Shown in pieces: positions 1,426 to 4,932 of a stretch of 64,000 nt of DNA (position 1 is its first letter; each line of letters begins with the position of its first letter). The translations under genes and the position numbers were made by a program. The DNA is taken from NCBI GenBank assembly GCA_902493595.1, contig CABUPU010000002.1, positions 9,942 to 73,941 of the forward strand. Direction: 5' to 3'. Under the pieces are notes generated by a model, which was given only the letters and a program-made list of their open reading frames with translations, was not told the origin of the DNA and did not search any database. Source of the DNA: an uncultured Mycoplasma sp. (GTDB lineage Bacteria; Bacillota_I; Bacilli_A; RF39; UBA660).

Positions 1426-1461
1426 CGGTTTTAAAAATAGAAAGGAAGTGTTTAAACGGTA

Positions 1462-2091
1462 AATTATTATGATGAAATCAAAGAAAAATTATTAAAAAAT
1501 GAGATTTATACAAAGGTAAAGGATTATTCTAAAGAAAAAAATAAAGTTCTTACTTATTTTGAAGTAGGTAAACTTTTAAGTGAAGCAGGAAAAGAATATG
1601 GCAATGATATAATTGGTAGTTATGCCGAAAAATTAGCTATTGAAGTAGGTAAAAAATATAATGTTAGAATACTCCGTAGAATTAGACAGTTTTATAATGT
1701 TTTTAAAGATGAAAAATGGTCGCCATCGGCGACCGTTTTGACCTGGAGTCACTATACAGAACTTTTGGCGTTAAATGATATTAATAAAATAAATTATTAC
1801 ATTGATATTTGTAAAAAACAAAGCTTAAGTAGAAATGATTTAAGAAATAAAATCAAATCCAATGAATATGAAAGACTAAGCGAGGAAACTAAAAATAAAC
1901 TAGTTACAAATGAAGAATTAAAACTACCTGATTTAGTACCAGATCCTTTATTAATTAAAAGTGAATTTGATAAGGAAAAAATAAATGAATATGTACTTAA
2001 AGAGGCGATACTTAATAATTTAGATAACTTTATAAAACAGTTAGGTAATGGTTTTCTTTATGCAGGAAACGAATATAAAATAACAAGTTAG
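1462..2091 (+). pseudogene. DUF1016 (YhcG family) N-domain-only paralog, copy 0. The start codon is mutated (ACG where the other copies have ATG).
   Basis: The open frame reads NYYDEIKEKLLKNEIYTKVKDYSKEKNKVLTYFEVGKLL...LTWSHYTELL...NGFLYAGNEYKITS. It is ~90% identical to the 3031-3663 copy. A TAA stop lies at 1453-1455, and the first in-frame start is TTG at 1738. The spacer gtttaaacggtaaatt aligns with gttaaaatgataaatt of the other copies. Confidence 0.6.
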
Positions 2092-2106
2092 AAAGGAAGT
2101 GTTAAA

Positions 2107-3015
2107 ATGATAAATTATTATGATGAAATTAAAGAGAAATTATTAAAAAATGAAATCTATGCAAAGGTAAAAGATTATTCAAAAGAAAGAAATAAAGTTC
2201 TTACTTATTTTGAAGTAGGTAAACTTTTAAACGATGCTGGTAAAGAATATGGTAAAAACATTATTGGCCAATATGCAGAAAAATTAGTTAACGAAGTGGG
2301 CAAAAAATATAATCGTAGAACTTTATTTAGAATGAAGCAATTTTATAACTTGCTTGAAAAGCAAAATAGCGAACAAAAAGTGTCACCATTGGTGACACAA
2401 TTGACGTGGAGCCATTATATTGTTCTTTTACCTTTAAAAAATGTAGATGAAATAAAATATTATATTGATGTTTGTGAAAAAAGAAATCTTACAAAAAGAG
2501 AGCTACAATCATTGATAAAATCCAAAGAATATGAAAGACTAAGCGAGAAAACTAAGAATAAATTAATAACTAATGAAGAATTAAAACTACCTGATTTAGT
2601 ACCAGATCCTTTATTAATTAAGAGTGAATTTAATATAGAACAATTAACTGAATATGCACTAAAACAGTCAATACTAAATAATTTAGATAACTTTCTAACT
2701 CAGTTAGGAAATGGCTTTAGTTATATTGGAAATGAATACAAAATGAAAGTTGGTAATAATTATAATTATATCGATTTACTTTTGTATAACTTTAAATATA
2801 AGTGCTTTGTAGTTATTGAACTTAAGGTGACTGAACTTAAAAAAGAACATATAGGCCAAGTACAAGTTTATATGAACTATATTGATAAGAACATTAAAGA
2901 TATATCTGATAATAAAACCATTGGCATAATTATATGTGCAAGAAATAATAAATGCATAATTGAGTATTGCTCTGATGAAAGAATATTTGCAAGAGAATTT
3001 AAAATAACAAGTTAG
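2107..3015 (+). CDS. DUF1016/YhcG-family PD-(D/E)XK nuclease, full length (copy 1).
   Basis: 302 aa. The N-domain motifs KNIIGQYAEKL, RRTLFRMKQFY and SPLVTQLTWSHY match those I recall from DUF1016 proteins. The C-terminal nuclease core is IDLLLYNFKYKCFVVIELKVTELKKEHIGQ...IGIIICARNNKCIIEY (D...E-L-K). It has the RBS GAAAGGAAGTG. Confidence 0.8.
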   Translation: MINYYDEIKEKLLKNEIYAKVKDYSKERNKVLTYFEVGKLLNDAGKEYGKNIIGQYAEKLVNEVGKKYNRRTLFRMKQFYNLLEKQNSEQKVSPLVTQLTWSHYIVLLPLKNVDEIKYYIDVCEKRNLTKRELQSLIKSKEYERLSEKTKNKLITNEELKLPDLVPDPLLIKSEFNIEQLTEYALKQSILNNLDNFLTQLGNGFSYIGNEYKMKVGNNYNYIDLLLYNFKYKCFVVIELKVTELKKEHIGQVQVYMNYIDKNIKDISDNKTIGIIICARNNKCIIEYCSDERIFAREFKITS

Positions 3016-3030
3016 AAAGGAAGTGATTAA

Positions 3031-3663
3031 ATGAATTATTATGATGAAATCAAAGAAAAATTATTAAAAAATGAAGTTTATGCAAAGGTAAAGGATTATT
3101 CTAAAGAAAGAAATAAAGTTCTTACTTATTTTGAGGTAGGTAAACTTTTAAGCGAGGCTGGCAAAGAATATGGTAATGATATTATCGGTAAATATGCTGA
3201 TAAATTAACAATTGAAGTAGGTAAAAAGTATAACACTAGAACACTTCGAAGCATTAGGCAATTTTATAATGTTTTTAGGGATAAAAAATGGCCCACATTG
3301 TGGAGCAAATTGCCTTGGAGCCATATAAGGGAATTATTACCATTAAAAAATGAGAATGCTATTAGCTATTATTTAAATAGTGCTATTAATCTGTCATTAA
3401 CTCAACGTGAATTAAACGAAAAAATCAAATCCAAAGAATATGAAAGACTTGGTGAGGAAACAAAAAATAAATTAGTTACAAATGAAGAACTAAAATTACC
3501 TGATTTAGTACCAGATCCTTTATTAATTAAGAGTGAATTTAATATAGAACAATTAACTGAATATGCACTTAAAGAGACGATACTTAATAATTTAGATAAC
3601 TTTTTAAAACAATTAGGTAATGGTTTTCTTTATGCAGGAAACGAATATAAAATAACAAGTTAG
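3031..3663 (+). CDS. DUF1016 N-domain-only paralog (copy 2), ending at NEYKITS without the nuclease domain.
   Basis: 210 aa with the same N-terminal domain. It stops right after GNEYKITS, whereas the long copies continue GNEYKMKVG...REFKITS. This is consistent with an in-frame deletion between the two EYKI/EFKI repeats. Confidence 0.7.
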   Translation: MNYYDEIKEKLLKNEVYAKVKDYSKERNKVLTYFEVGKLLSEAGKEYGNDIIGKYADKLTIEVGKKYNTRTLRSIRQFYNVFRDKKWPTLWSKLPWSHIRELLPLKNENAISYYLNSAINLSLTQRELNEKIKSKEYERLGEETKNKLVTNEELKLPDLVPDPLLIKSEFNIEQLTEYALKETILNNLDNFLKQLGNGFLYAGNEYKITS

Positions 3664-3678
3664 AAAGGAAGTGTTAAA

Positions 3679-4581
3679 ATGATAAATTATTATGATGAAA
3701 TTAAAGAGAAATTATTAAAAAATGAAATCTATGCAAAAGTTAAAGATTATTCAAAGGAAAGGAATAAAGTTCTTACTTATTTTGAAGTAGGTAAACTTTT
3801 AAGTGAAGCTGGTAAAGAATATGGTAAAAATATTATAGGTCAATATGCTGATAAATTAGTTAATGAAGTAGGCAAAAAATATAATTTAAGAACTTTATAT
3901 AATATGAGAAAATTTTATGAATTATTTAGTAACGAAAAATTGTACACACTGTGTTCAATTTTGACCTGGAGTCACTATAGAGAACTTTTATCATTAAAAA
4001 ATATTGATGAGATTAATTATTATATTAAAATATGTGAACAACGAAATTTTGGTGTAAGAGAACTAAAAAAAATTATTAAATCCAATGAATATGAAAGACT
4101 TAGCGAAGATACTAAAAATAAATTAGTTACTAATGAAGAACTTAAACTACGTGATTTAGTACCAGATCCTTTATTAATTAAGAGTGAATTTAATATAGAA
4201 CAATTAACTGAATATGCACTAAAACAGTCAATACTAAATAATTTAGATAACTTTTTAACTCAGTTAGGAAATGGTTTTAGTTATATTGGAAATGAATATA
4301 AAATTAAAATAGGAAATAATTATAATTATATTGATTTACTTTTATTTAATATAGAGTACAGCTGTTATGTTGTTATTGAGTTAAAGGTCACTGAACTAAA
4401 AAAAGAACATATAGGTCAAACTGAAGTTTATATGAACTATGTAGATAAAAATGTTAAGAAACCTTATCATGATAATACTATTGGCATAATTATATGTGCA
4501 AGAAATAATAAATGTATAATTGAATATTGCTCTGATGAAAGAATCTTTGTAAGAGAATTTAAAATAGAAGGAAGTGTTTAA
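3679..4581 (+). CDS. DUF1016/YhcG-family PD-(D/E)XK nuclease, full length (copy 3).
   Basis: 300 aa and ~85% identical to copy 1. The nuclease motifs IDLLLFNIEYSCYVVIELKVTELKKEHIGQ are conserved. Confidence 0.8.
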   Translation: MINYYDEIKEKLLKNEIYAKVKDYSKERNKVLTYFEVGKLLSEAGKEYGKNIIGQYADKLVNEVGKKYNLRTLYNMRKFYELFSNEKLYTLCSILTWSHYRELLSLKNIDEINYYIKICEQRNFGVRELKKIIKSNEYERLSEDTKNKLVTNEELKLRDLVPDPLLIKSEFNIEQLTEYALKQSILNNLDNFLTQLGNGFSYIGNEYKIKIGNNYNYIDLLLFNIEYSCYVVIELKVTELKKEHIGQTEVYMNYVDKNVKKPYHDNTIGIIICARNNKCIIEYCSDERIFVREFKIEGSV

Positions 4582-4932
4582 ATGATAAATTATTATGATG
4601 AAATTAAAGAAAAGTTATTAAAAAATGAAATCTATGCAAAGGTAAAGGATTATTCTAAAGAAAGAAATAAAGTTCTTACATATTTTGAAGTAGGTAAACT
4701 TTTAAGTGAGGCAGGAAAAGAGTATGGTAAAAACATTATTGGACAATATGCAGAAAAGTTAGTTAACGAAGTGGGCATAAAATATAATTTAAGAACTTTA
4801 TATAATATGAGAAAATTTTATGAATTATTTAGTAACGAAAAATTGTACACACTGTGTTCAATTTTGACCTGGAGTCACTATAGAGAACTTTTACCTTTAA
4901 AAAATATAAACGAAGTACCTTATTTAGAATGA
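4582..4932 (+). pseudogene. DUF1016 paralog remnant (copy 4), truncated and rearranged after ~110 codons.
   Basis: The first 330 nt are near-identical to copy 3. After PLKNI the sequence jumps to a stretch resembling an earlier part of the gene (ttatttagaatgaaacaatttcataa, versus ttatttagaatgaagcaattttataa in copy 1) in another frame. A stop follows. Confidence 0.6.

Follow-up and report, generated by a model that had tools for sequence, protein, structure and literature searches.

A strain-variable tandem array of DUF1016/YhcG genes as a probable birth-and-death cluster, with a covarying palindrome inside the genes

We asked how a tandem array of predicted nuclease genes in a gut bacterium came to alternate between short and full-length members, and whether it works as a switch or is a cluster whose copies are gained, reshuffled and lost. 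The array begins near position 1440 of a 64,000-nucleotide stretch (the window, i.e. the whole stretch analysed) of contig CABUPU010000002.1 from an uncultured Mycoplasma sp. and consists of five copies, c0 to c4, of a DUF1016/YhcG gene. Its closest named genome match is 'Mycoplasma sp. CAG:472', together with many metagenome-assembled genomes named 'uncultured Bacilli' from human and ruminant guts, all of which we take to be members of the order RF39. Our analysis indicates that the array is probably a birth-and-death cluster of candidate defence nucleases, shaped by unequal homologous recombination and microhomology deletions: real and lively, mechanistically ordinary as it looks, and with a short/long 'switch' that looks like ordinary gene decay. 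Above the ordinary are the cassette-like diversification of a probable DNA-binding domain and, more important, an intragenic palindrome that is family-wide.

The array is made up as follows (aa, amino acids).

1456-2091, + strand: c0, short nuclease-less copy, 211 open codons, ACG replacing ATG; probably a pseudogene
2107-3015, + strand: c1, full-length YhcG/DUF1016 nuclease gene, 302 aa
3031-3663, + strand: c2, 210-aa nuclease-less copy, start and ribosome-binding site intact
3679-4581, + strand: c3, full-length YhcG/DUF1016 nuclease gene, 300 aa
4582-4932, + strand: c4, N-terminal stump, 116 codons
4917-4982, + strand: relic of a further copy, out of frame, translated as TLFRMKQFHNIFSNKKVAVIT and a stop, about residues 72-92 of a paralog

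A reading of this DNA made from its letters alone (the sequence-only reading) had named five head-to-tail DUF1016/YhcG copies here, and the Pfam search that it proposed found them, with both domain models matched. At the gathering cut-offs (32.8 bits for DUF1016_N, PF17761; 32.5 bits for YhcG_C, PF06250), DUF1016_N is present in all five copies (36.5 bits in the open part of c0, 88.7 in c1, 89.3 in c2, 88.7 in c3 and 62.1 in c4), and YhcG_C passes in c1 and c3 only (128.4 and 125.7 bits). In c0 and c2 YhcG_C stays below its cut-off (27.8 and 24.2 bits) and covers profile positions 16-53 of 157, about the first 37 residues, while c4 gives no YhcG_C match. The conserved spacer described earlier, TAGAAAGGAAGTG(T/A)T(A/T)AA-ATG, is 15 nt long, is kept in front of c0-c3 and holds an extended Shine-Dalgarno-like sequence, AGAAAGGAAGTG, 5-6 nt ahead of the first codon; the corresponding sequence of c4, GAAGGAAGTG, lies at the same distance, in a spacer that is 9 bp shorter, and the stop codon of c3 directly adjoins the ATG of c4. 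The first codon is ATG in c1-c4 and ACG in c0, and the change in c0 is borne out by its positional counterpart in two other contigs (L087 and L088), which has ATG and an intact 211-aa open reading frame (ORF). The description of c4 as a rearranged stump also holds: the out-of-frame relic behind it matches STLFRMKQFYNIFSNEKVAPMV of L085_g0, and the c4 ending, LLPLKNINEVPYLE and a stop, is common to all strains, with two different upstream cassettes. The GC content is ∼25%, the paralogs are ∼20% apart in DNA, and the longest exact repeat within the array is 125 bp; Tandem Repeats Finder gave no array call, as the period exceeds 500.

Could the array be a product of assembly? The same site was found in other strains via near-identical proteins and is marked by an S24-peptidase-like gene and priA downstream of the array. 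The orders of long (L) and short (S) genes at this site are as follows.

Window, L002, L003: S(no ATG)-L-S-L-stump
L001: intact insertion sequence (IS) copy, then L-S-L-stump
L085: L-L-L-S-stump
L086: L-L-L-L-L-S-stump
L087, L088: S(ATG intact)-L-L-L-stump

Over its first 5.7 kb the window matches the independent human-gut metagenome contig L002 with 100% identity, the gene order of the window recurs in L003, which comes from another assembler, and a short contig (L004) repeats the c1-c2 junction; the contig names (NODE_ and k127_) denote different assemblers. A repeat that was collapsed or mis-joined during metagenome assembly might be suspected from the identical stretches of up to 125 bases that copies share and from a 1761-bp perfect repeat in the duplication of L086. 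However, order and sequence recur in independent samples and different assemblers, and with ∼20% DNA divergence the paralogs can be assembled individually, which makes an artefact hardly credible. Neither a collapsed repeat nor a single stable copy, two of the outcomes that would have spoken against the sequence-only reading, was found.

The gene number at the site is 4, 5, 5 or 7, depending on the strain. This strain comparison, which had been suggested as a search for copy-number variants, shows that the site differs in both gene number and gene order, and it agrees with the view of a recombinationally active array. What sets L086 apart from L085 is an 1833-bp tandem duplication, at whose junction lies a gene with its first 72-104 nt from the short gene and its body from another paralog; this is the hybrid predicted by unequal crossing-over between conserved 5' ends. 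As the other strains show other orders, the alternation of short and long genes is particular to the strain of the window, and the proposal that it is the organising principle of the locus did not survive the comparison.

We then considered how the short forms arose. Both c0 and c2 end in GNEYKITS, and the sequence-only reading had explained this by an in-frame deletion between the EYKI and EFKI repeats that flank the nuclease domain. The repeats involved are these.

2734-2744 (c1) and 4294-4304 (c3), + strand: 5' member of an 11-nt direct repeat, GAATA(C/T)AAAAT, with the sequence GAATACAAAAT in c1
2995-3005 (c1) and 4555-4565 (c3), + strand: 3' member of the repeat, GAATTTAAAAT, 261 bp from its partner
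2071-2081 (c0) and 3643-3653 (c2), + strand: fused repeat, GAATATAAAAT, with the junction GAATATAAAAT followed by AACAAG

In the short copies the fused repeat is followed by the normal 3' end, AACAAGTTAG, and the junction fits a 261-bp (87-codon) in-frame deletion between the 11-nt repeats that flank the catalytic core. Moreover, the database protein P0243 (298 aa) combines a c2-type variable segment with an uninterrupted nuclease domain (...GFLYAGNEYKI-KIGNNY...REFKI-TK) and is the undeleted parent type of c2, so that both the junctions and a parent fit the proposed deletion; in P0314 a c0-type variable segment is joined to the nuclease domain. An exact 125-bp repeat (2041-2165 = 3613-3737) runs from the end of the short gene across the spacer into the beginning of the long gene that follows. 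The short-long junction was thus duplicated or gene-converted en bloc, and most likely one deletion took place and later spread along with its junction.

Among the best 120 database relatives, short forms of 210-211 aa make up three clusters only; forms consisting of N-domain and linker were rare in a search of 5.8 billion proteins, and none was found in 80 related species-level genomes, a pattern that limits them to the present species. Other truncations arose independently (P0298, which is out of frame, P0256 and P0301). In P0002, P0004, P0022 and P0060 (L006 8785-9984), from relatives, a stump of 106 residues runs in frame into the following gene; these fusion proteins have 402-406 aa, the join of KNIDEI to KEKLLKNE and a partly duplicated N-domain, and the join sits where internal KNIDEI(N/K)YY codons resemble the N-terminal NYYDEI codons. 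The truncations and fusions look like frequent accidents in AT-rich, repeat-prone sequence and not like a designed switch, and the short forms would mostly be decay products and not a designed off-state.

Can the locus nevertheless be a programmed switch, in which an N-terminal targeting domain is toggled between a nuclease-bearing and a nuclease-less state through the EYKI/EFKI repeats and the paralogs, as a form of phase variation? The 11-nt direct repeats around the deletion occur in every long copy, short and long genes with an equal variable segment are both present in the population (c2 and P0243), and the array is demonstrably recombinogenic. However, the deletion is one-way and reversible only by recombination with a long paralog, and neither a site-specific recombinase nor inverted repeats were found at the locus. 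The short c2 allele is fixed, being identical in four assemblies and not polymorphic, the absence of such short forms from the 80 related species and their rarity among the 120 closest relatives do not fit a switch, and the other truncations are out of frame or irregular, as accidents would be. Inverted matches within the array are short, AT-rich and at chance level, with no inverted copy among them and no minus-strand copy in the 80 loci. For the genes called up to 10 kb to the left and right, the DDE transposase is the sole match to a transposase or recombinase family (several of these neighbours match no Pfam family at all), and silent cassettes devoid of translation signals were not found, each copy including the stump having its own ribosome-binding site. 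With direct repeats only, and neither an invertase nor inverted cassettes, switching between nuclease-competent and nuclease-less variants is quite improbable.

The array may be compared with the hsdS shufflons of type I systems and with pilE/pilS and vlsE. The last two are expression-site plus silent-cassette systems. Like all of these, the array has variable segments between conserved sequence that supports recombination, and mosaics between strains. Unlike them, it has direct repeats only, without an invertase or promoterless silent cassettes, and its documented changes are duplications, deletions and exchanges between strains and not a switch within a clone.

A different role for the nuclease-less forms would be that of functional partners: the short protein, perhaps also the stump, could compete with, inhibit or regulate the full-length paralogs, antitoxin-like, in which case the short form would keep a ParB-like DNA-binding or dimerisation domain. 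In favour of such a role c2 has an intact ORF, a strong Shine-Dalgarno sequence, an ATG and an identical protein in four assemblies, the counterpart of c0 in L087/L088 is open over all 211 aa, and 17 of 80 species likewise have N-only stumps at the ends of their arrays. In addition, c2 and the long relative nearest to it differ mainly by synonymous changes (omega, the ratio of non-synonymous to synonymous change, 0.13-0.25), although such low values may be inherited from long ancestors or imported via recombination. Against it, c0 has lost its start codon, the palindrome described below has decayed in c2, and the short forms are restricted to one lineage, many arrays having neither a short form nor a stump. 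We consider a partner role unlikely.

The birth-and-death account is in agreement with the pattern of selection along the gene (dS, synonymous divergence).

First 68 codons: dS 0.4-0.9, omega 0.05-0.15
Codons 69-137 (variable): dS 0.5 to saturated, omega 0.2-0.7
Nuclease: dS ∼0.3-1.0, omega ∼0.1

The combination of a dS of 0.4-0.9 with a low omega means that purifying selection on the protein, and not recent homogenisation, has kept the N-terminal part conserved. In the linker dS is lower (0.08-0.6), which suggests some gene conversion within the species. The middle segment (about residues 69-137) differs strongly between paralogs. In a maximum chi-square analysis of 121 N-terminal sequences, 30 clear two-parent mosaics had their breakpoints in the conserved flanks, and the variable segment thus behaves as a cassette. 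At least two full copies are present at 24 of 80 related-species loci, with a maximum of 6, and 25 N-only stumps at 17 of the 80; all copies are on one strand. The account starts from what was observed: the anatomy, the membership in the family, the variation between strains, the origin of the short forms by deletion, and conserved parts that are under purifying selection. Cassettes would be duplicated, deleted and reshuffled by unequal homologous recombination within the linker and the conserved 5' third, and slippage or illegitimate recombination between short AT-rich repeats would yield truncated genes. One 261-bp in-frame deletion would have removed the catalytic core and given rise to both short forms, the short 3' end having spread through duplication of the short-long junction (the 125-bp exact repeat); c0 would then have lost its start codon, and c4 would have been left as a stump with the relic. 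Several paralogs may in this way provide several target specificities.

What do the genes encode? The motif GNEYK...YIDLL...VVIELK...GQ..VYMNY of c1 and c3 corresponds to the family motif E...D...E(I/L/V)K plus GQ..Y. The c1 protein has the family-invariant residues E238, L239 and K245 and the near-invariant D223, K240, G250 and Q251; in two family alignments with proteobacterial homologs (A3 and A5), E238 and L239 do not vary, D223 is near-invariant each time, and K240 is invariant in A3 and near-invariant in A5. The products of c1 and c3 are therefore predicted PD-(D/E)XK nucleases. The PADLOC model PDC-S02 matches c1 (E = 7e-63), c3 (E = 2e-63) and the N-terminal part of c2 (6.5e-34), which makes the family a candidate single-gene anti-phage system with a presumed defence role. 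In their two-domain architecture and nuclease motif the long copies are like YhcG/DUF1016 (PF17761 + PF06250, COG4804) and PDC-S02 in general. DUF1016 co-occurs with restriction-modification genes and mobile elements, and the typical YhcG is a single gene in a type I restriction-modification operon or a mobile element (PMC3424549, PMC9881135), whereas here 4-7 tandem paralogs with truncated members stand beside housekeeping genes and an IS copy, without restriction-modification genes. Our literature search found no experimental characterisation of YhcG/DUF1016, which is described as a predicted nuclease only. Clustering as such is not new: clusters of YhcG paralogs are known in Rickettsia (PMC1189080; see also PMC4316617), although the available part of PMC1189080 describes no cassette mosaicism, truncation series or strain copy-number variation for them. 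The same paper likens the catalytic domain to archaeal Holliday-junction resolvases and calls the N-domain helical, without assignment.

For the N-domain, a search of the PDB with the family profile matched Spo0J/ParB (E = 0.02) over LSWSHY...LL.LK...SVReL, while a PDB sequence search with a single protein returned nothing useful; HTH_ParB stayed below threshold, with the Klebsiella homolog alone giving a score (14.5 bits at a cut-off of 22.6, E = 0.04). From these weak, mutually consistent signals, and as a lead only, the N-domain is probably helical, ParB/KorB-like and DNA-binding, and the variable segment would comprise the helices that follow the LSWSH motif. The earlier idea of a targeting domain thus gains some support from this weak resemblance. 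In comparison with ParB/Spo0J/KorB, the scores here are sub-threshold and the models of low confidence, and no ParA partner accompanies the domain, which is joined to a nuclease in one protein. A ParB/KorB-type N-domain, if true, would give a concrete hypothesis for target recognition, and a cassette-like variable segment predicted to bind DNA is what an arms-race gene would be expected to show. YhcG/DUF1016, a very large family, is repeatedly met in defence and restriction-modification contexts, and in one lineage of reduced-genome gut bacteria it has expanded into strain-variable tandem arrays.

Several points weigh against reading the array as a birth-and-death cluster of defence nucleases with a DNA-binding domain. 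The defence role rests on the PADLOC candidate family and the known restriction-modification association of DUF1016, and the array has neither restriction-modification genes nor recognised defence genes beside it. Confidence in the AlphaFold models is low (pLDDT, the predicted local distance difference test, 53 and 61). All comparisons rest on short-read metagenome contigs, for which the 1.76-kb repeat of L086 is hard to assemble, so that this duplication may be an assembly path. Finally, c2 is intact with a strong ribosome-binding site, so it may have a role such as that of a nuclease-less competitor.

We next turn to the palindrome, which was first seen in a terminator scan as minus-strand GC-rich hairpins in c0, c1 and c2. 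It lies at one codon position, just ahead of the conserved L(S/T/P)W(S/G/T)H codons.

1718-1734 (extended 1713-1739): c0 palindrome, GGTCGCC-ATC-GGCGACC, DNA fold z = -5.0
2380-2398: c1 palindrome, GTGTCACC-ATT-GGTGACAC, DNA fold z = -3.3
3289-3307: c2 decayed palindrome, TGGCCCAC-ATT-GTGGAGCA, two non-compensated mismatches, z = -0.24
3940-3958 (extended 3936-3962): c3 palindrome, TTGTACAC-ACT-GTGTTCAA, one T:T mismatch, z = -2.9
4843-4861: c4 palindrome, sequence as in c3
E. coli K-12 yhcG (L097), coding-sequence nt 378-410: AAAGATTTGGCAGAC-GCT-GTCTGCCAAATCTTT, 15-bp arms, DNA fold z = -7.6

A stem of 8 bp with a 3-nt loop is near-universal in 119 distinct related copies, which have 49 different 5' arms. 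In 77 sequences the two arms covary as follows.

Cells forming a pair: observed 94.5%, shuffled 54%
Double-change cells: observed 210, shuffled 71
Covariation score: observed 0.84, shuffled 0.17

In 500 shuffles the observed values were not once reached, and sliding the partner columns abolished the signal. Covariation is present at all 8 pairs, with only three G-U pairs. The encoded peptide shifts as reverse-complementarity dictates (VSPLVT, VSTMST, WNPMGS, LNTLCS), indicating that the constraint acts on the nucleic acid; close relatives of c2 encode WSTMWT at this site. In the AlphaFold models the residues encoded by the palindrome form a low-confidence stretch between helices.

The LSWSH motif and the palindrome ahead of it are common to the array, E. 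coli yhcG and plasmid and phage homologs. Arms of 10-14 bp with a 3-nt loop are found in Klebsiella, Rhodococcus, Cupriavidus, Leptolyngbya and Cetobacterium plasmid genes, and the palindrome is present in most homologs on phage contigs (homolog loci L098-L104 and L187-L201), while 8 bp are reached by 2.4% of random 69-nt windows from the same loci; a second viral scan yielded no further loci. A run of A4-6 ahead of the stem in ∼95% of RF39 copies gives the element the look of a minus-strand terminator, whereas the GC-rich homologs have a longer palindrome without the T-run. Between positions 1300 and 5100 no Rfam family matched the palindrome at E ≤ 5, the one match being to a small nucleolar RNA by chance, and our literature search found no description of it; a family-wide covarying palindrome thus seems to be undescribed.

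Is the palindrome selected? A perfect 8-bp stem is present in 68% of 194 intact copies versus 37% of 41 truncated copies (Fisher p = 3e-4, uncorrected for phylogeny). This decay speaks for selection that depends on a working gene and against a self-perpetuating quirk of mutation, and purely mutational upkeep by template switching is made less likely by it. Among unique stems with a single mismatch there are 25 A:C versus 3 G:T on the coding strand, but the skew is limited to non-synonymous positions (18 versus 2; synonymous 7/232 versus 1/63), and protein constraints therefore confound a reading in terms of minus-strand RNA. Two further ideas were rejected. Strict coupling of the stem to the downstream variable half does not hold for c1 and P0001, which share the downstream type and differ in the stem, and on present data the breakpoints of the mosaics, at codons ∼17, 42, 60-71, 79, 100 and 137-162, do not mark the palindrome as a recombination hot spot.

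These breakpoints also bear on the possibility of self-directed recombination, in which the nuclease or the ParB-like domain would act on the palindrome of the paralogs and set off rearrangement or gene conversion, and the genes would form a self-diversifying or selfish, homing-like element. Such an element would account for a covarying palindrome in the variable segment of every copy and for highly rearranged arrays, and it fits the likening of the nuclease domain to archaeal Holliday-junction resolvases in PMC1189080. However, only 1 of 30 breakpoints is near the palindrome, the rest lying in conserved flanks, and single-copy genes, E. coli yhcG for one, have the palindrome too, so that it is not specific to arrays; this makes self-directed recombination very improbable.

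Possibly, though doubtfully at present, DUF1016/YhcG genes generally carry a selected palindrome in the codons of the ParB-like domain that is free in sequence and conserved in symmetry, and that the gene's own product or an antisense transcript could use as a cis-acting element. Under such a cis-element reading it could serve as an internal operator or nucleation site, as a mark by which a defence nuclease recognises self, or as a regulatory antisense terminator. The presence of a ParB-like domain together with a resolvase-like nuclease makes a cis site for the own product attractive, as speculation. The operators of parS and KorB type are conserved in sequence; in the DUF1016 palindrome it is the symmetry that is kept, while the sequence varies. 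If the cis-element reading is true, the RF39 arrays are collections of paralogs, each with its private version of the palindrome. Its presence in E. coli K-12 yhcG makes the biology of the family testable in a model organism.

Finally, we looked at the surroundings of the array, where the following features precede c0.

1-831, - strand: IS transposase gene, DDE_Tnp_1, frameshifted, near full-length, cut by the window edge
1402-1419, + strand: putative terminator-like hairpin and T-run, GGGATGCGAAAGCATCTT TTTTTGCGGT, in a conserved leader

The frameshifted transposase gene is the IS remnant noted earlier beside the array; in tblastn it has 92-97% protein identity, in two frames, to the 298-aa transposase that L001 encodes intact at this place, a protein that matches DDE_Tnp_1 (29.7 bits, Pfam cut-off 23). 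The leader with the hairpin is conserved in other strains. The hairpin lies ∼20 nt ahead of the first ribosome-binding site of the array, which leaves no room for a promoter, and a promoter scan (40 matches versus 38.7 expected) was uninformative in this AT-rich DNA. Downstream of the array are housekeeping genes, and no restriction-modification system, recombinase or recognised defence gene was found nearby.

Further upstream, L002 encodes at 2594-7356 two large proteins (621 and 910 aa), at least the first with an N-terminal membrane anchor, neither of which matches Pfam or PADLOC. The sizes of this pair differ per strain (548/807, 574+/809 and 571+/987 aa among the equivalents in L001, L085, L087 and L089), and the pair is a second hypervariable region beside the array. 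At 353-1322 L002 encodes a SocA/Panacea-domain protein (163 aa; 26.8 bits at a cut-off of 25.7) and, overlapping it, a 161-aa ORF; the two may be a toxin-antitoxin pair, a few kb upstream of the array. This protein was the sole finding when the upstream neighbours were searched with PADLOC and Pfam for a defence island, and none was found. L089-L096, of a related lineage, have the left flank of L085 (a minus-strand ORF of 146 aa, probably left from an IS) and a two-gene array (302 + 232 aa), which is followed by holA and not by the peptidase gene and priA, suggesting a rearrangement with one end within or beside the array. In the 64-kb window the only Rfam matches at gathering level were a 6S RNA at 40757-40942 (+ strand, 53 bits) and a tRNA at 7868-7940 (- strand).

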